NCBI RefSeq assembly: GCF_013122565.1
Contig: NZ_CP053258.1
Direction: 5' to 3' (one strand)
Origin: Escherichia coli
GTDB taxonomy: Bacteria > Pseudomonadota > Gammaproteobacteria > Enterobacterales > Enterobacteriaceae
DNA length: 64,000 bases
Shown piece after piece: positions 12,001-17,478 of the stretch (positions within the stretch are counted from its first letter, which is position 1; each line of letters opens with the position of its first letter). Below the pieces are notes generated by a model. It was not told where the DNA came from. It saw only the letters and a list, made by a program, of their open reading frames with translations, and did not search any database. The translations under genes and the position numbers were made by a program.

Positions 12001-15000
12001 AGCAGCGTTAATCACATCGTCGCCGGAAACGGTGTTAATGGAAATCGCCACCGCCGCCAGATCGACGGTGACTGGATGGGTGATAGTCGTAGTCGTTTCT
12101 GCAGTGTTAGTGCCGCTTACAATGATATTCACTGTACCCGCTGGCCAGTTGCCCACGTCTGCTGCCGGAACGCCAACGCTCCATGTGCCATCGGCTAATA
12201 CTGTCGCGCCATAGGTGACGTTATTGATCACCACCGTCAGCGCCGCGCCCGCCGCCAGCCCGCTGCTGCTACCAGTTATCACCAGTGCCTGACCGTGTTC
12301 GATGCTGTTAACCACATCATCGCCCGCCACGGTATCGACGCGCAGGCCTGGCAGGTTGGCGTCGATAGTAATATCTCGCGAACCGCTGCCGGTATTGCCA
12401 ACGCCGTTGGTCACTGAGGCGTTAACCGTCAAGTCGCCATTACCGATGGCCTGAATATCCGCCGCCGGAACGTCCACGCTCCAGCTTAGATTCCCCTGCA
12501 CGGTAGCGGTGTAGGTTTTCCCGCCAAGCGTCACGGTAACCGTATCGCCCGCCGCCGCGCCCGTCACCTGGCCGCTGATGGTCTGCGCTACGCCCGATTC
12601 GGCGGCGTTAATAATATCGTCGCTCGCCACCGGATTAATGGTGACGCCAGGCAGCGCGGTATTGACCTGCACGTTATGGCTGGCGGAATTGCTGTTGCCT
12701 GCGCGGTCGGTGACGTTCGCCGTCACCGTGTAGCTGGCTTCGCCCAGCGCACCTACTGCGGAAGCAGGCACTATGGTGCTCCAGTTGCCTGCAGCGTCCG
12801 TCGTCGCAGTGTAATTTTGCCCGTTCAGCGTCAGCGTAATTGTCGTGCCTGCTGGCTGATTACTGGTGCCGGAAATTTGCAGATCCGCGCCTTTTTCGGT
12901 GGCGTTAATCACGTCATCGGTGGCGATGGTGTTAATGCCAATGGTCGGCGCGGTCAGATTCACTGTAACTGTGCGGCTGGCATCATCGCTATTGCCTGCC
13001 GCGTCGGTAATGCTGACAGTGATGGTTTGCGGGCCGCTGCCAAGCGCGGTGACATCTGCCGCCGGAACGCCGACGCTCCAGTTGCCGGAGGCGTCCAGCG
13101 TTGTTGTATAGGTTTTACTGTTTAGCGTGACGGTGACGACATCCCCCGCTTCTCCGCCCGTGCTGGAGCCGGAAATCACCAGCGCCTGCCCGTGTTCGGC
13201 GGCGTTGATAATATCATCGCCCGCAATGGTGTTGATGGTGAGTACCGGAACGGTGAGATCCACCGCCAGATTATGCGTGGTGCTCGCCGGGTTGCCCGCT
13301 TTGTCATTGACCGTGGCGGTCAGGGTGTGGCTGCCATCCGTCAATGCCGCAAGATCTGCCGCCGGAATGTTAATACTCCAGCTACCATCGGCCTGTACCG
13401 TTGCCTGATACGTATGCACGGTCGGGCTATTGAGCGTTACCGTAACAATCTGCCCTGCTTCAGCGGTGGTGCTGCCGCTCACCGTCACACCCGCATCGGC
13501 TTCGCTGGCGTTGACGATATTGTCGCTGGCGACGGTATTGATAATGATGGTTGGCGCGCTGCTGTCGACGCTGTAGTTATGCACCGCCGAGGCGCTATTG
13601 CCGTTGATATTGCTGACGCTGGCCTGCGCGGAGGCGCTGCCCTCTGGTAATGCCGCTAAATCGGCGGCAGGTACGGTGGCAGTCCAGCTACCATCGCTCG
13701 CTACGCTGGCGGTGTAATTTTTCCCGCCAAAGGTAACGGTGACGGTTTGACCGGGTTCTACATTAGTGGTGGTGCCGGAAAGGGTTAAATCAGCGCCTTT
13801 TTCTGCGGCGTTAATCACATCATCCGTGGCGATGGTGTTGATGGTAATCGCCGCCGGCGTGAGATCGACCGTAACCGGATGCGTAATGCTCACCGGATTT
13901 TCGGCGCTACTTTCCCCTGAAACGACAATATTAACCGTCCCCGCAGGCCAGGCGCTAACCTGCGCCGCCGTGACGCCCACGCTCCAGCTACCATCGGCCT
14001 GCACCGCAGTGGTGTATTCCACATTATTAATCGTAACGGTAAGCGGCGTGCCTTCTGCCAGCCCCGAGCTGCTGCCGGTGACAACCAGCGCCTGCCCGTG
14101 TTCGATGATATTGACCACATCATCGCCCGCCACCGTATCGACCCGCAGGCCGGGCAGATTGGCGTCGATGGTGATATCCCGCGTGCCGCTGCCGGTGTTG
14201 CCGTTTTGATTGGTGACTGAGGCACTCACCGTTAAATCGCCATTGCCCAGCGCCTGAATATCTGCCGCCGGAACGCTCACGCTCCAGCTTAAATTATCCT
14301 GCACGGTGGTGGTGTAGGTATTACCGCCCAGCGTAACGGTTACCGCGTCGCCAACTGCGGCTCCAGTAACCTGCCCTATGATGGTTTGCGGTACGCCCGC
14401 TTCGGCGGCGTTAATAATATCGTCGGTTGCCACCGGATTAATGGTCACACCGGGCAGCGCACTGTCGACCAGCACGTTATGGCTGGCGGTGTTGCTGTTG
14501 CCGATACTACTGGTCACCGCCGCTGTTACCGTGTAGTTGGCCTGGCCCAGTGCGGTTACTGCCGATGCCGGAACGGTGACGCTCCAGTTGCCGGAGGCGT
14601 CGGTCGTGGTGGTGTAATTTTGCCCGTTTAGCGTTACGGTGATGGCGGTATTAACAGGCTGATCGCTGGTGCCGGTAATCTGGACATCGGCTCCTTTTTC
14701 GCTGGCGTTAATCACATCATCGCCCGCAATGCTGTTAATGCCGATAAGGGGCGCGGCGGTATTGACCGTGACGGTCAATGACTGGCTGCCCGTGTTTCCG
14801 GCTTTGTCGGTTACCGAGACGCTGACAGGATAACTGCCGTCCACCAGTCCGCTGACAACGGAAGCCGGAACACCCAGACTCCAGTTGCCGGAACCATCCA
14901 CCACCGTGGTGTAATCCACATTATTCAGCGTAACGGTGACGATATCGCCCGCCTGAGCGCCAGTAACCGTGCCGCTGATGATTTGCGCCTGGGTGTGTTC

Positions 15001-16500
15001 CGGCGTGTTGATGACGTTATCGGTCGCCACCGGATTAATGGTTACCACCGGCGGCGTGGCATCCACCAGCGCCACCCGTGAAACGCTGCTCGGGTTACCG
15101 GCGACATCGTTCACGCTGGCGGTGACCGTGGCGTTGCCGTCAGCCAGTGCGTCAACGTTGGCGGCGGGAACGGTCACGCTCCAGGTGCCGTCTGGCTGCA
15201 CGACGCCCTGATAGGTTTGCCCATTCAACGTAACGGTCACCGTCTGCCCCGGCTGGGCGTCAGTGGTGCCGGTGATGGGCAGATCCTGCCCGCTTTCGGC
15301 GGCGTTAATGATGTTATCGGCGGTCAGTGGATCGATGCTTAAGGCCGGGGCCAGGCTATCGACGGTAATGGTGCGGGAGGTGTTGCCGGTATTGCCGCTG
15401 AGATCCGTCACAGAAGCGGTAATCGCCACCGCGCCGTCAGGCAGATTTCCCATCGCGGCGGCAGGTACCGTCAGACTCCAGGAGCCATCGGCCTGCACGG
15501 TAGTGGTAAAACTCTGTCCAGCCAGGGTTACTGTGACGGTTTGTCCTGTCTCGGCCTGTTGAGTGCTACCGGTAAGGGTCAGTGGCGCACCTTTTTCTGC
15601 GCCACTGATAATGTCATCGCCAGAGACGGTGTTAATGGTGATCAACGGAGAAACACCGACCAGCGTGATTGCTCGAGACGCCGCGCCGGTATTTCCTGCA
15701 GCATCTGTCACGGTGACGAAAATCGTATTGGCACCGCGATCCAGCGTGCGGGTTACCGCTGGGTCCAGCGCCACATTCCAGCTGCCATCTGCCAGCACAA
15801 TGCCCGTCAGGACATGAGTGCCCAATTTCACCGTTACCGTATCGCCAGGAGAAGCACCGCTGACTTGTCCGGAGATGATCTGCGCGACGGCCTGCTCAGC
15901 ATTATTAAGAATATCGTCGCCCGCTACGGTATTAACACTGACCACGGGTGCTGAGGTATCTACCGTGAAATTGGCGCTGTGGCTGGTGCTGTTCCCTGCC
16001 CGATCGCTGACACTGGCATTGACAGCGTAATTACCCTCCGCCAGTGCCTGGACCTCCGTGGCAGGCAGCGTCACTTGCCAGGTTCCGTCGCTACCGACGG
16101 TTGCTGTATGGCCTTTCCCGTTTACGGTCAGTGTTACGGTTTGCCCCGCTTCTGCATTCGACGTGCCGCTCAGTACCAGCGCAGCGTTATGTTCCGCAGC
16201 ACTGATGATGTTGTCCTGAGCGATGGTGTTGATGGCAAGCGTTGGCGGTTGGGTATCGACCGTTAGCAGCTGCGCGCCGGTGACCGTATTGCCTGTGGCG
16301 TCTTTCCCACTGACCAGCACCGCCTGATTCCCTTCGCCTAACGCCTGTGCATCGGCGGTCGGTACTTGTACGCTCCAGGCACCGTTAGCGCCTACGCTGG
16401 TGGTGTAGGTTTTGCCGTTTAGCGTAACGGTGAGTTCTGTTCCCTGTGCCAAATGACTACTGGTGCCAGAAAGCGTAAACCCGGCGGCCTGTTCGCTGGC
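1..16500 (-). repeat. Tandem coding repeats, unit ~300 bp (~100 aa Ig-like domain), dozens of copies
   Basis: Plus-strand spurious ORFs in the track recur with ~300-bp spacing and related translations (e.g. starts at 155, 500, 794; 1742, 2042; 4136, 4442, 4733). The nucleotide sequence is visibly periodic and G+C-rich. Confidence 0.85.
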
Positions 16501-17376
16501 GTTAATAATGTTATCGCCTGCGGTGGTGGCAACCTGCACGCTGGCCTGACTATTGTCGATGGTTAACGTTATCGAACCGGCGTCAGTGATGGTACTGCCG
16601 ACAATTTGCACCACTGACCAGGTATGTTCACCTGCACTTTGCGTGGGTAACGAGACACTCCAGTGACCGTTGTTGTCTACCTGAGTACTGGCAATAGTAT
16701 TGCCGTTACTGTCTTTAATCTGAATAGTCGCCCCCGCCTGCCCGCTGCCGCTAAAGGTTGGCGTGGTGTCATCGGTGATGTCATTGGTGGCGAGAATGCC
16801 GCGCTGATCGCCCTGATTATCGGTAACTAAAAATGATGGAGTGGCAACACCCGGTTCAGGCACAGGCTCAGCGGGTGGCGTAGGGTTATTAATCACTTCC
16901 GTTTTCGAGTCGCCATCACCACCGCTTGCCAGCAGTGCACCAAGCGCGCCACCGCCTACCGCCGCCCCCGCCAGCCATCCCCACGGGAAGGCGCTGGTCT
17001 GAGCAACGGTATCAAGAAATGGCGCAATGCTTTCAATCGCAGTGGTCTGGGCAGTCAGTTCTACTGGGGCTAATCCACCCGCAGCAGTATCGGCAAAGGT
17101 GACATGGGTTAACTGTTGCCCATCGGCAAACACCAGTTCCGATTGTTCAGCCGTATTTGCCGCTTGCAGGAAATAACCGTTGCAGCGGATCACCGTGCCG
17201 TCCTGCATATAGATCAGCAGGTCATTTCCTTCACGGACGTAACGCGCAACGGCAGAGGCCTGAGCATGAACCTGCACCACGGAAGGCTCATAAATAACAA
17301 CCGTGACGTCGCCAGGATTAATCAGCGTTTGTTTGACGGATGTTTTACGCGAAATAACATCAATAATCAGGCTCAT
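1..17376 (-). CDS. Giant surface/secreted adhesin (BapA-like N-terminal domain + tandem bacterial Ig-like repeat domains), putative T1SS substrate; 5' end in window, 3' end beyond left edge (partial, >=5792 codons)
   Basis: Hand translation of the minus strand from ATG 17376..17374 (AGGAA Shine-Dalgarno ~8 nt upstream; in-frame TAA at 17409..17407) gives MSLIIDVISRKTSVKQTLINPGDVTVVIYEPSVVQVHAQASAVARYVREGNDLLIYMQDGTVIRCNGYFLQAANTAEQSELVFADGQQLTHVTFAD..., with no Sec-type signal peptide. Hand translation of 180..1 gives ...WTTLTVIGTSWSYADGRTLTDGTWNYTVRVVDLAGNVGQTATQNVVVDTTSPEVAKSITI, a typical Ig-like adhesin repeat. The ORF track reports no complete ORF in this minus frame between 1 and 17376, while all other frames are chopped into 60-280 aa pieces; this implies one uninterrupted frame with no stop before the edge. 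Confidence 0.85.
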   Translation of the reverse strand, partial: MSLIIDVISRKTSVKQTLINPGDVTVVIYEPSVVQVHAQASAVARYVREGNDLLIYMQDGTVIRCNGYFLQAANTAEQSELVFADGQQLTHVTFADTAAGGLAPVELTAQTTAIESIAPFLDTVAQTSAFPWGWLAGAAVGGGALGALLASGGDGDSKTEVINNPTPPAEPVPEPGVATPSFLVTDNQGDQRGILATNDITDDTTPTFSGSGQAGATIQIKDSNGNTIASTQVDNNGHWSVSLPTQSAGEHTWSVVQIVGSTITDAGSITLTIDNSQASVQVATTAGDNIINASEQAAGFTLSGTSSHLAQGTELTVTLNGKTYTTSVGANGAWSVQVPTADAQALGEGNQAVLVSGKDATGNTVTGAQLLTVDTQPPTLAINTIAQDNIISAAEHNAALVLSGTSNAEAGQTVTLTVNGKGHTATVGSDGTWQVTLPATEVQALAEGNYAVNASVSDRAGNSTSHSANFTVDTSAPVVSVNTVAGDDILNNAEQAVAQIISGQVSGASPGDTVTVKLGTHVLTGIVLADGSWNVALDPAVTRTLDRGANTIFVTVTDAAGNTGAASRAITLVGVSPLITINTVSGDDIISGAEKGAPLTLTGSTQQAETGQTVTVTLAGQSFTTTVQADGSWSLTVPAAAMGNLPDGAVAITASVTDLSGNTGNTSRTITVDSLAPALSIDPLTADNIINAAESGQDLPITGTTDAQPGQTVTVTLNGQTYQGVVQPDGTWSVTVPAANVDALADGNATVTASVNDVAGNPSSVSRVALVDATPPVVTINPVATDNVINTPEHTQAQIISGTVTGAQAGDIVTVTLNNVDYTTVVDGSGNWSLGVPASVVSGLVDGSYPVSVSVTDKAGNTGSQSLTVTVNTAAPLIGINSIAGDDVINASEKGADVQITGTSDQPVNTAITVTLNGQNYTTTTDASGNWSVTVPASAVTALGQANYTVTAAVTSSIGNSNTASHNVLVDSALPGVTINPVATDDIINAAEAGVPQTIIGQVTGAAVGDAVTVTLGGNTYTTTVQDNLSWSVSVPAADIQALGNGDLTVSASVTNQNGNTGSGTRDITIDANLPGLRVDTVAGDDVVNIIEHGQALVVTGSSSGLAEGTPLTVTINNVEYTTAVQADGSWSVGVTAAQVSAWPAGTVNIVVSGESSAENPVSITHPVTVDLTPAAITINTIATDDVINAAEKGADLTLSGTTTNVEPGQTVTVTFGGKNYTASVASDGSWTATVPAADLAALPEGSASAQASVSNINGNSASAVHNYSVDSSAPTIIINTVASDNIVNASEADAGVTVSGSTTAEAGQIVTVTLNSPTVHTYQATVQADGSWSINIPAADLAALTDGSHTLTATVNDKAGNPASTTHNLAVDLTVPVLTINTIAGDDIINAAEHGQALVISGSSTGGEAGDVVTVTLNSKTYTTTLDASGNWSVGVPAADVTALGSGPQTITVSITDAAGNSDDASRTVTVNLTAPTIGINTIATDDVINATEKGADLQISGTSNQPAGTTITLTLNGQNYTATTDAAGNWSTIVPASAVGALGEASYTVTANVTDRAGNSNSASHNVQVNTALPGVTINPVASDDIINAAESGVAQTISGQVTGAAAGDTVTVTLGGKTYTATVQGNLSWSVDVPAADIQAIGNGDLTVNASVTNGVGNTGSGSRDITIDANLPGLRVDTVAGDDVVNSIEHGQALVITGSSSGLAAGAALTVVINNVTYGATVLADGTWSVGVPAADVGNWPAGTVNIIVSGTNTAETTTTITHPVTVDLAAVAISINTVSGDDVINAAEKSADLTLSGSTSGVEAGQTVTVTFGGKTYTATVAGDGSWTTTVPAADLSALRDGDATVQASVSTINGNTASATHAYSVDATAPTLAINTIATDDILNAAEAGNPLTISGSSSAEAGQTVTVTLNGVTYSGTVLADGSWSVSVPTADLSNLTASQYTVSASVSDKAGNPASTTHGLAVDLTVPVLTINTVSGDDIINAAEHGQALVISGSSTGGEAGDVITVTLNSKTYTTTLDASGNWSVGVPLSDVTALGSGPHTITAAITDAAGNSDDASRTVTVNLTAPTIGINTIADDNVINATEKGADLQITGTSNQPAGTTITVTLNGQNYTATTDSNGNWSATVPASAVSALGEANYTVTANVTDTAGNSNSASHNVLVNSALPAVTINAVATDDIINAAESGNAQTISGQVTGAAQGDTVTVTLGGNTYTATVQSNLSWSVDVPAADIQALGNGDLTVNASVTNGVGNTGSGSRDITIDANLPGLRVDTVAGDDVINSIEHNQALVITGSSSGLTAGTALTVEINNVTYGATVLADGTWSLGVPAVDVSNWPAGTVNITVSGTNSAGTTSTITHPVTVDLAGVAITINTLSGDDVINAVEKGETLVVSGSTSGVESGQTVTVTFGGKNYTTTVEANGSWTVNVPPADLASLPDGAGNVQASVSNINGNNAQADRTYSVDATAPLVTINTIASDDILNVSEAGAGITISGTTTAQAGQTLTVTLNNNTYQTTVQADGTWSVNVPAADLSGLTASSYTVTATVSDKAGNPASADHALAVDVTAPDLTINTVAGDDIINAIEHGQALVVSGTSTGAEPGDVVTVTLNGKNYTTTLDASGNWSVGIPAADVTALATGSQTITASLSDRAGNSDSTTHNVTVDLSGPTLTISIVSGDDIINNAEKTQDLTISGGSSGLAAGTTVTVMLNGLAYSATTDGSGNWSVTVPASAVGALGEAVYSISASATDSAGNSGSTTHTVNVESLLPGVIINTVAGDDIINAAEIIVAQTISGQVTGTAVAGNTVIVTIGGNQYTATVQPDLSWSVSVPANVLQALGNGELTISASVTNSANNTGTATHDIVIDANLPGLRVDTVAGDDVINSIEHTQALVVTGSSSGLVAGAALTVVINGVTYGATVLADGTWSVGVSAADVGNWPAGTVNIAVSGTNTAGTTTSISHPVTVDLAAVAITINTLSTDDVINAAEKGSDLQLSGTTSGVEVGQTITVIFGGKSYTTTVATGGTWGLTIPAADLATLPDGAANVQASVSNVAGNIAQATHAYTVDATAPSVTINTIASDDILNANEADSALTISGTSTAEAGQTVTVTLNGVNYSGNVQADGSWSVSVPTGDLANLTASSYTVNASVSDKAGNPASATHNLTVDLVAPVVTINTVAGDDIINATEHGQAQIISGSATGATTGNTVSVTIGSNTYTTVLDANGNWSIGVPASVISALAQGDVTITATVTDSAGNSGTASHTVTVALGAPILSINTIAVDDIINATEKGADLAITGTSNQPAGTQITITLNGQNYTTTADASGNWSVTVPASRVSALGEATYTVTAAATDTDGNSGSASHNVQVNTALPGVTINVVASDDIINAAEAGAGQTISGQVTGAAAGDTVTVTLGGATYTATVQANLSWSVDVPAPALQALGNGELTISASVTNSVGNTGNGTREITIDANLPGLRVDTVAGDDVVNIIEHNQALVITGSSSDLAAGSNVTLTINGQTYVAAVLADGSWSVGVPAADVSAWPAGKVTITASGNTTAGNPVSVTHPVTVDLTAVAVSINAITVDDVINAAEKGAALTLSGSTSGVEAGQTVTVTFGGKTYSATVAANGSWSTSVPAADMAALRDGDASAQASVSNVNGNSATTTHAYSVDASAPTVTINTIAGDDILNAAEAGAALTITGSSTAEAGQTVTVTLNGTNYTGTVQTDGSWSVSVPPADLSALTASNYTVNAAVSDKAGNPASVNHNLTVDTSVPVVTINTVAGDDVINATEHTQAQIISGSATGAATGSTVTVTIGTNTFTTVLDASGNWSVGVPASVVSALANGTVTINASVTDAGGNSGSTTHQVTVNTGLPTITFNSISGDNVLNADEKGQPLTISGNSTGLATGAQVTVTLNGHNYSATTDAAGNWTLTVPVSDLAALGQANYTVSVSATSAAGNTASSQANLLVDSGLPGVTISTVAGDDIINAAEAGAGQTISGQVTGAAAGDTVTVTLGGATYTATVQANLSWSVDVPASALQALGNGELTISASVTNSVGNTGNGTREITIDANLPGLRIDTVAGDDVVNIIEHDQALVITGSSSDLAAGSNVTLTINGQTYVAAVLADSTWSVGIPAADVSAWPAGTVTITASGNTTAGNPVSVSHPFTVDLTAVAISINTVASDDVINAAEKGTDLIISGSTSGIESGQTVTVTFGGKTYTASVAANGSWSVTVPAADLATLPDGAANVQASVSSASGNSASATHAYSVDASAPTLTINTIASDDILNATEAGNPLTISGTSTAETGQAVTVTLNGATYTGTVQADGSWSISVPISALDALSASNYTVSATVNDKAGNPGSASHNLAVDTTAPVLTINTVAGDDIINDAEHAQALVISGTSTGGEAGDVVSVVLNGKTYTTTLDASGNWSVGVPAADVTALGSGAQTITASVSDRARNSDDASRTVTVSLSAPVISINTIAGDDVINATEKGSDLALSGTSDQPAGTAITVTLNGQNYSATTDASGNWSVTVPASAVSALGEATYSVTASVTNAQGNSSTASHNVQVNTALPGVTINPVATDDIINASEAGSAQTISGQVTGAAAGSTVTVELGGKTYTATVQADLSWYVSVPAADWQALGNGELTVNASVTNAVGNTGSGTRDITIDASLPGLRVDTVAGDDVVNIIEHSQAQVITGSSTGFAAGTALTVVINNQTYAATVLANGSWSVGVPATDVSNWPAGTLNITVSGANSAGTQTSITHPLTVDLTTVAISINAITPDDVINAAEKGAALTLSGSTSGVETGQTVTITFGGKTYTTTVAANGSWSTTVPAADMAALRDGDASAQVRVTNVNGNSATATHEYSVDSAAPTVTINTIASDNIINASEAAAGVTVSGTSTAQTGQTLTVTLNGTNYQTTVQADGSWSLTLPATDLTALANNGYTLTATVSDLAGNPGSASKGVTVDTTAPVISFNTVAGDDVINNVEHTQAQIISGTATGAVAGDRLVVTIAGQQYVTSTDASGNWSVGVPASVISGLADGTVTISATITDSAGNSSTQTHNVQVNTAAVSLSVSTISGDNLINAAEAGSALTLSGTGTNFAAGTVVTVLLNGKGYSATIQSNGSWSVNVPAADVAALADGTSYTVSASAQDSAGNSATASRSVAVDLTAPIISINTVSTDDRLNAAEQQQPLTLNGSTSAEVGQTVTVTFGGKTYTATVAANGTWALNVPAADLAALGQGAQTITASVNDRAGNPGQTTHALTVDTVAPTVTIATVAGDDIINNAEQLAGQTISGTTTAEVGQTVTVTFNGQTWTATVGSGGSWSVFIPAQQFAGLSDGSYTISATVADQAGNPGSASRGVTLNGDVPTITINTFAGDDVVNAAEHGSSLVISGTTTAPVGQTLTLTLNGKTYTTTVQTGGSWSYTLGSADVTALADGNAYVINASVSNAIGNNGSSNHTITVDLSAPAMGINIDSLQADTGLSASDFITSVSPVVVNGSLTAALASNETAQISIDGGVTWTTLTVTGTTWRYNDSRTLTDGNYLYQVRVIDAAGNVGATDSQNVVIDTTAPDPAVKTIAISAITTDTGLITNDFVTSDTTLAVSGTLGAALSAGEFAQISIDGGTTWQNLSVSGLTWSYLDGRTLTDGNYNYQVRVIDTAGNIGATASQIVTVDTTAPLASKTIAIAGISDDTGLSSSDFVTRDTTLTVRGTLGAALAADERAQISLDGGVTWTTLTVIGTSWSYADGRTLTDGTWNYTVRVVDLAGNVGQTATQNVVVDTTSPEVAKSITI
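2942..14200 (-). repeat. Higher-order super-repeat, period ~1794-1800 bp (six ~300-bp units), at least 6 tandem copies
   Basis: Equivalent track ORFs beginning MPPKVTVTVCP/MTVCP recur at about 2942, 4733, 6530, 8324, 10124, 11921 and 13721. Other families recur at the same spacing (5632 vs 7429; 5120 vs 6905; 11072 vs 12866). Confidence 0.8.
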
Positions 17377-17388
17377 AATGGCATTCCT

Positions 17389-17424
17389 GATAAATGGCGC
17401 ACATCCTTAGCGAGTCCATTTATC
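17389..17424 (-). promoter_or_regulatory. Perfect 9-bp inverted repeat (GATAAATGG-N18-CCATTTATC) in the OMP-adhesin spacer, abutting the adhesin Shine-Dalgarno
   Basis: Read directly from the sequence: arms at 17389..17397 and 17416..17424. Function is unknown (hairpin or dimeric-regulator site). Confidence 0.35.
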
Positions 17425-17478
17425 TAAATAAGACAAAGGTAATCACTTAACAACGGCCCACTATTAATAATGGCAGGA

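Follow-up and report, generated by a model that had tools for sequence, protein, structure and literature searches.

The N-terminal module of the giant Escherichia coli adhesin SiiEA belongs to the BapA-prefix type and may serve surface retention independently of LapG

Introduction

Giant adhesins exported by type I secretion can be held at the cell surface through their N-terminal part. The described systems considered here are the LapA-type adhesins (Pseudomonas fluorescens LapA, Bordetella BrtA, Vibrio cholerae FrhA and Pectobacterium ECA3266), BapA of Pseudomonas aeruginosa (PA1874) and SiiE of Salmonella, encoded on Salmonella pathogenicity island 4 (SPI-4). The present work deals with the N-terminal module of SiiEA, the product of a giant gene whose 5' part lies in a stretch of 64,000 nucleotides of Escherichia coli DNA (RefSeq assembly GCF_013122565.1, contig NZ_CP053258.1), referred to below as the window, and particularly with a charge-free Gly/Ala/Leu segment of this module. 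A first-pass annotation made from the sequence of the window had reported a BapA-type N-terminal domain followed by this hydrophobic segment, and had proposed that a di-alanine located therein could be a LapG-type cleavage site. The N-terminus of E. coli SiiEA is found here to be a BapA-prefix module, neither SiiE-like nor LapA-like, and the release models based on SiiA/SiiB or on LapG and cyclic di-GMP (c-di-GMP) should therefore not be transferred to it.

SiiEA shares with the LapA-type adhesins an N-terminal module made up of a small folded domain and, after it, a Gly-rich linker, with a similar total length, as well as a transporter of the ATP-binding cassette (ABC) family and of the LapB/LssB type, and the module likely performs the same job, that is the stalling of export in order to hold the protein at the surface. 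It differs from them in having no detectable sequence homology to their modules, no conserved TAAG site or DPxxxL context, a charge-free hydrophobic segment, and no LapG/LapD partner in the locus or the window; release, if any, would therefore not proceed by the c-di-GMP/LapG route. Smith et al. described in the N-terminus of P. aeruginosa PA1874 a 'degenerate' di-alanine, 137-AAAIG-141, followed by a poly-Gly linker; 136-AGAAVG-141 of SiiEA lies at nearly the same place. In their hands, this N-terminus could substitute for the retention module of LapA in surface display and biofilm formation, and it was not cleaved by LapG. The bapABCD operon of PA1874 resembles in composition the orthologous siiEA locus of E. 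coli strain SCU-102, the ABC transporter counting 723 aa (720 at the siiEA locus) and the adaptor 395 aa (391), but the outer-membrane gene follows the adhesin gene in bapABCD and precedes it at the siiEA locus.

Salmonella SiiE, from which the gene name originates, is likewise a giant type I adhesin built of immunoglobulin-like (Ig) repeats and retained through its N-terminal part. According to a review of this system, the SiiE N-terminus contains a coiled coil located between beta-sheet regions, and retention requires the SiiA/SiiB proton channel. Unlike this arrangement, the N-terminal domain of SiiEA is predicted to be all-beta and devoid of coiled coil, and the SCU-102 siiEA locus comprises only channel, adhesin, ABC transporter and adaptor genes, with neither siiA nor siiB. 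The name siiEA is the outcome of annotation transfer and does not denote an N-terminal mechanism common with SiiE.

Results and Discussion

Identity and architecture of the SiiEA N-terminus

The siiEA gene is read from the minus strand, a point left unstated in the first-pass annotation, starting with the ATG at 17376-17374. The same start is used in RefSeq, 102 nt past a TolC-family gene, and the machine translation agrees at every residue with the peptide that had been translated by hand. Translation of the plus strand over 16800-17700 encounters stops throughout. The siiEA frame is uninterrupted over 5,792 codons down to window position 1, and the open reading frame therefore extends beyond the window. 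The composition of the translated protein is that of a repeat adhesin, Thr, Ala, Val, Gly and Ser being abundant and Cys occurring once. The reported absence of a Sec signal agrees with inspection of the first 30 residues (MSLIIDVISRKTSVKQTLINPGDVTVVIYE), which display no unbroken hydrophobic core.

The encoded protein is E. coli SiiEA and belongs to the BapA/Bap/LapF prefix family, which is already named and catalogued. The NCBIfam model NF047714 (adhesin_SiiEA, 'BapA-related adhesin SiiEA'), an exception-type model of 229 N-terminal positions with a curated cutoff of 425 bits, scored 432.5 bits when aa 1-200 were submitted and 502.5 bits for aa 1-1000. The BapA-type domain reported earlier was recovered with significant scores by both Pfam BapA_N (PF22783; aa 5-132, model positions 4-122 of 123, E = 1.6e-18) and NCBIfam NF033677 biofilm_BapA_N (aa 5-69, 71.8 bits for a cutoff of 35, E = 3e-20), and the top 50 AlphaFold Database matches to the N-terminus were all BapA-prefix proteins. 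Further along the protein, the Ca_tandemer repeat model (E = 5e-210) accounts for many Ca-stabilised Ig-like repeats; the first Ig-like domain is covered by Pfam Big_13 (aa 185-274) and Big_6 (aa 199-256). Sequence and profile searches of the Protein Data Bank with the SiiEA N-terminus returned nothing significant, and fold searches retrieved no solved structure matching its first domain.

The prefix family includes, besides SiiEA (NF047714), Salmonella BapA, Pseudomonas putida LapF and Acinetobacter Bap-like proteins. SiiEA has in common with this family the prefix domain, the hydrophobic Gly/Ala stretch, a poly-Gly/Pro spacer, Ig-like repeats, a C-terminal type I signal and an adjoining dedicated TolC/ABC/HlyD system. 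The E. coli segment ranks low in hydrophobicity for this family, with a Kyte-Doolittle value of 1.40 versus 1.9-2.5 in many relatives; no material difference was otherwise observed.

The organization of the module was modelled with AlphaFold2 (AF2) using an alignment of 36 sequences. A confident all-beta domain was predicted for aa 1-124; folded alone, it comprised 11 strands and no helix of at least 4 residues, with a predicted local distance difference test score (pLDDT) of 90.8 and a predicted template modelling score of 0.85. Between aa 125 and 167 the pLDDT falls below 50 and no secondary structure is predicted; the hydrophobic segment itself displays values of 33-46 and no helix. An Ig-like domain with pLDDT above 90 is then predicted over aa 181-275. 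The borders of the segment, given at first as about 16915-16985, could be set exactly (Table 1), and the Pro-rich linker announced ahead of the first Ig-like domain is indeed present, the onset of this domain being at about aa 181-185.

Conservation of the charge-free segment

In order to follow the segment across the family, aa 1-185 were used as a phmmer query, which yielded 154 cluster representatives, 97 of them with a usable N-terminus and with identities down to 27%. A run was defined as a succession of residues containing none of D, E, K, R, N, Q, H and P. Runs of at least 18 residues were found in 78 of the 97 homologues (median length 22, median start aa 130), and the SiiEA segment is itself uncharged over its entire length. 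Upon alignment of about 97 homologues with MAFFT, not a single charged residue was present in the columns corresponding to query positions 134-149. Gly142 is nearly invariant (86/96), Trp134 is found in 50/95 sequences, columns 150-155 are rich in Gly and Ser, and poly-Gly occurs at or past the run in 62/97. The 19-residue Kyte-Doolittle average that places SiiEA at 1.40 is at least 1.6 in 57 of 97 homologues, with a maximum of 2.46 and a median of 1.94 for the Enterobacterales subfamily. The spacer that links the N-domain with the first Ig domain is of constrained length among the homologues, with a median of 47 residues and 10th-90th percentiles of 38-57. The same element was observed in an independent, organism-labelled sample obtained by scanning a genome collection for the HSELVFDDG motif: it is present about 52 residues past this motif in 53 of the 54 usable Enterobacterales loci. 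The segment trails the BapA-prefix domain in nearly every member of the family, and LapA-type modules are without such a stretch.

Between the two most divergent E. coli alleles, the 22 codons of the segment differ by 5 synonymous and 0 non-synonymous changes. The N-domain of the most divergent allele displays 32 synonymous and 5 non-synonymous codon differences, and the Pro-rich linker varies by substitutions and a 5-codon indel. From these codon counts, the hydrophobic segment is under purifying selection within the species.

This element distinguishes BapA-type from LapA-type N-termini and is open to direct mutagenesis. What has been noted for one Pseudomonas protein as a degenerate LapG site plus a poly-Gly linker would be part of a hydrophobic element extending to the whole family.

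The di-alanine and the LapG question

The first-pass annotation had considered AGAAVG as a possible site at which LapG, or another periplasmic protease, would cleave the adhesin in order to release it. Such a reading could appeal to the location of the di-alanine, about 14 residues past the N-domain, and to the LapB/LssB-like transporter. The published definition of the LapG motif is nevertheless [T/A/P]AA[G/V], and the context of the SiiEA di-alanine, GAAV, falls outside it. Ala-Ala is found in register in 15 of 92 homologues for 13.2 expected from column composition, and the full motif in none of the 92. Ala138-Ala139 is accordingly a by-product of composition rather than a conserved site.

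The comparison was extended to a set of 71 LapA-type retention modules, retrieved with a LapA-like bait sequence which was first passed through the NCBIfam model NF033682 (retention_LapA). This bait, serving as positive control, scored 149.9 bits for a cutoff of 50, whereas the same model gave no match at E <= 0.01 with either aa 1-200 or aa 1-1000 of SiiEA; of the two profile comparisons suggested earlier, the one with BapA was positive and the one with LapA negative. The LapG motif is present in 68 of the 71 LapA-type modules at a fixed position and within hydrophilic surroundings. In these modules the longest stretch without charge measures 12 residues at the median, and a Kyte-Doolittle value of at least 1.6 is reached in only 1/71. 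Comparison of the BapA-prefix and LapA-module alignments with hhalign returned a homology probability of 16-17%. In Pectobacterium, where LapG and LapD correspond to ECA3263/3264, the site of the substrate ECA3266 (DPTQVLEATAAGNDNTGE) is of the hydrophilic LapA type, and the AAAIG of PA1874 mentioned above is left uncleaved by LapG.

The statement that no lapG/lapD-like gene is visible in the window holds, and neither gene was found in the complete locus of strain SCU-102 or across roughly 90 kb of its surroundings. The sole c-di-GMP gene of the window is a core EAL-domain phosphodiesterase gene, pdeB (Table 1). Its product reaches 79 bits on the LapD model for a cutoff of 1020, through the EAL domain alone, and was rejected as a LapD-type partner. 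No E. coli homologue of LapD or LapG is listed by Navarro et al.

A TAAG tetrapeptide occurs at the N-terminal edge of the segment in 12 BapA-prefix adhesins of the Pantoea/Erwinia/Winslowiella type, e.g. VITAAGLGALGL, about 50-55 codons past HSELVFDDG (loci L007, L009, L032, L033, L040, L044, L048, L049, L051, L056, L060 and L062). Taken by itself, it speaks in favor of cleavage at an equivalent place. The same position across the Pantoea/Erwinia subfamily is however occupied by TAAG in 12 cases, TAGG in 7, TASG in 4 and AASG in 1, and the upstream flanks of the TAAG relatives hold a major facilitator superfamily gene, rcsD, rcsB, rcsC and gyrA, with neither lapG nor lapD. TAAG was therefore rejected as a rescue of the LapG idea, because its second Ala varies and these flanks are without LapG/LapD. 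At the sequence level, every testable feature of a LapG/LapD system is missing from SiiEA except the LapB/LssB subtype of the transporter; the cleavage hypothesis is largely refuted and only a very slight likelihood is left to it.

Proposed mode of retention

The interpretation which we favor, with a probability of about one half, is that the N-terminus of SiiEA acts as a non-cleavable, LapG-independent retention module composed of a plug domain and a threading tether, and can be briefly described as follows. The module would consist of the beta BapA-prefix domain (aa 1-124), the charge-free stretch (131-152) and a spacer that is Gly/Asp-rich and then Pro-rich (153-184), ahead of the Ig repeats. 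Type I substrates exit with the C-terminus first, and the N-terminal module therefore reaches the machinery last. The folded beta domain would then be unable to pass and export would stall, leaving the spacer of about 55 residues threaded in the TolC-like duct and the Ig stalk displayed outside the cell. As the segment immediately follows the plug, it would be expected at the point at which the conduit is narrowest and at which its small uncharged residues could be accommodated and bulky or charged side chains would be selected against.

Several observations argue for this interpretation, among them the type I secretion context, the predicted anatomy of the module, the conservation of the segment and the retention experiment on PA1874 cited above. 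The median spacer of 47 residues would span about 160 Å when fully extended, which is near the length of the TolC duct, reportedly about 140 Å. The ABC transporter of the SCU-102 locus is moreover of the LssB type (TIGR03375 type_I_sec_LssB, 836.4 bits for a cutoff of 693), and the LapB/LssB-like subgroup of transporters has been tied by Smith et al. to adhesins with retention modules. Both the surface retention of SiiEA and the placement of its hydrophobic segment are nonetheless inferred.

Several points weigh against this interpretation. The literature searched on E. coli SiiEA gave annotation-level mentions only, and no experiment. The parallel with PA1874 relies on the name of this protein, the layout of its operon and the place of AAAIG, and the membership of PA1874 in the BapA_N class is presumed here: an alignment-based homologue search gave mostly short enterobacterial and Acinetobacter fragments, a cluster look-up returned a Pseudomonas sp. 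member and not PA1874 itself, and the HSELVFDDG scan of the genome collection produced matches in Enterobacterales only. P. aeruginosa BapA has furthermore been found in supernatants and only loosely associated with the surface. Finally, the lumen of TolC is water-filled and electronegative and would not obviously call for hydrophobicity, but merely for small residues; the strict hydrophobicity of the segment is therefore not fully explained by threading.

A bolder proposal, tentative and rather doubtful in our opinion, is that the strictly charge-free, Gly-centred segment defines a second class of anchoring for type I adhesins, with a mechanism of its own. It might act as a stop-transfer element or as a 'gasket', partitioning into the inner membrane or sealing the conduit at its narrowest point. 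If a distinct class of this kind exists, neither LapG/LapD nor c-di-GMP would be required for retention, and some other trigger would have to bring about release.

Alternative explanations

The segment could also be a true inner-membrane helix, inserted co-translationally or leaving the ABC transporter sideways as a stop-transfer sequence, so that the adhesin would be tethered in the inner membrane with its chain leaving the cell by way of the assembled type I channel. The charge-free run with its median of 22 residues and frequent Trp cap, and the Kyte-Doolittle values attained in the family, notably in the Enterobacterales, are those that such a helix might display, and an onset about 7 residues past the plug would suit the plane of the membrane domain of the ABC transporter. 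AF2 nevertheless predicted no helix, and the alignment columns of the segment showed no alpha-helical periodicity in either volume (p = 0.47) or hydrophobicity (p = 0.61). Both flanks are acidic and almost devoid of Lys and Arg (mean K+R of 0.02 on the N-side), and there is therefore no positive-inside signal. Insertion energies, estimated as a crude Hessa-scale sum with position ignored, can be read both ways: the family median of +2.7 kcal/mol is near that of the HlyD anchor of the locus (+1.9) and far from the LapA modules (+9.0), but the E. coli segment is at +3.2, a membrane helix of the ABC transporter is at -5.7, and values at or below 0 are obtained in only 3 of 97 homologues. As a candidate for membrane insertion, the segment is hydrophobic but marginal. 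P. aeruginosa BapA is, in addition, absent from the membrane fraction. A membrane anchor had been one of the two fallbacks of the first-pass annotation, the other being a flexible hinge; in its classical form it is not supported by these results and we hold it to be rather unlikely.

Full secretion of the adhesin was considered as well. In that case, the Gly/Ala stretch would let the adhesin re-associate loosely with the outer membrane or lipopolysaccharide, or self-associate, and Gly/Ala-rich hydrophobic stretches are prone to aggregation. P. aeruginosa BapA is recovered in supernatant and loosely cell-associated fractions, and Salmonella BapA has been described as secreted. The LapA-like surface retention conferred by the PA1874 N-terminus in P. 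fluorescens speaks against this possibility, and the constrained spacer length and the LapB/LssB-type transporter suit a threaded state better; full secretion is consequently regarded as unlikely. Still less can be said for the second fallback, in which the segment would merely be a flexible hinge or a linker of low complexity, passive and without a role of its own, even though the very low AF2 confidence over aa 125-167 and the abundance of Gly, with poly-Gly following in most homologues, would be expected of it. Linkers usually accept polar or charged residues, whereas 16 successive columns remain uncharged here among diverse sequences and Gly142 is kept in nearly all of them; between E. coli alleles, the segment has accumulated synonymous differences exclusively while the neighbouring Pro-rich linker varies and even carries an indel. 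This strict exclusion of charge, together with the purifying selection that the alleles point to, makes a mere hinge improbable.

Locus organization and distribution

The features identified in the window are collected in Table 1. The gene directly upstream of siiEA was assigned to the outer-membrane channel family with TIGR01844 type_I_sec_TolC (417.6 bits for a cutoff of 225). It is followed in the window by ybaT, glsA, copA and ybaP, which identify the region as E. coli chromosome, and the remainder of the window consists of core genome. The order in strain SCU-102 is TolC-family gene, siiEA (7,227 aa), type I ABC permease/ATPase, HlyD-family adaptor and cueR, and in complete genomes the siiEA locus sits between ybaT and cueR. 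The C-terminus of SiiEA is located outside the window; a secretion signal of the T1SS_VCA0849 type is carried by the C-terminus of the full-length SCU-102 homologue.

Table 1. Position of siiEA, of the parts of its N-terminal module and of other features in the window
Feature	Position	Strand	Basis or remark
siiEA, 5' part; giant Ig-repeat type I-secreted adhesin	1..17376	-	open frame, NF047714, Ca_tandemer, annotation of nearly identical loci in RefSeq
First Ig-like (Big_13 / Big_6) extender domain, aa 185-274	16555..16824	-	Pfam, AF2
Spacer, Gly/Asp-rich then Pro-rich, aa 153-184	16825..16920	-	translation
Charge-free Gly/Ala/Leu segment PWGWLAGAAVGGGALGALLASG, aa 131-152	16921..16986	-	translation, homologue alignment
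Ala138-Ala139, di-alanine flagged in the first-pass annotation	16960..16965	-	composition by-product, not a conserved site
BapA-prefix N-domain, predicted all-beta, aa 1-124, proposed plug	17005..17376	-	Pfam BapA_N, NF033677, AF2
Shine-Dalgarno-like AGGAA, 7 nt 5' of the ATG at 17376	17384..17388	-	sequence
TolC-family outer-membrane channel, directly upstream of siiEA	17479..18834	-	TIGR01844, RefSeq annotation
EAL-domain c-di-GMP phosphodiesterase, pdeB, core gene, ~36 kb from siiEA	53773..55329	+	synteny with SCU-102

Among the 5,426 complete genomes of E. coli, 958 (~18%) hold the DNA encoding the SiiEA N-terminus, always as one copy and always on the chromosome. The carriers include O157:H7, extraintestinal pathogenic (ExPEC) and enterotoxigenic (ETEC) strains, and the orthologues are usually labelled siiEA by RefSeq, in hundreds of genomes. 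The present assignment is of practical value for annotation, and its novelty is small.

A number of minor observations were made on related loci. The closest match to the window is strain PCN033 (NZ_CP006632.1, 98.7% identity), in which siiEA (20105-40781 of locus L001) is annotated as a frameshifted pseudogene; a frameshift in a giant repetitive gene can be either genuine decay or an assembly error. In strain GDSC2227PM (NZ_CP135595.1, 3361759-3362331), only 73% of the query was matched and a short 'BapA/Bap/LapF prefix-like domain-containing protein' abuts the type I ABC gene, which suggests a natural loss of the whole repeat region with the N-terminal module remaining. A BapA-prefix adhesin of 3,850 aa (P0045; L005, 10001-21553) is encoded on a contig of 66 kb beside the conjugation genes TraI, TraD and TraG and genes of the H-NS-like type, with no type I secretion genes in the flank examined, and adhesins of this kind may travel on conjugative elements. 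SCU-102 has an IS200C transposase gene between htpG and adk (L003, 30082-30540). The window is apparently without IS200C at about 35.3-37.3 kb, since the coordinates of the downstream genes are shifted by about 640 bp relative to SCU-102. Past the type I secretion genes, the cueR-ybbJ interval of SCU-102 (L002, 29986-32838) holds a gene for a YadA-like family protein and three hypothetical genes, and the ybaT-ybbJ interval may constitute a small adhesin island.

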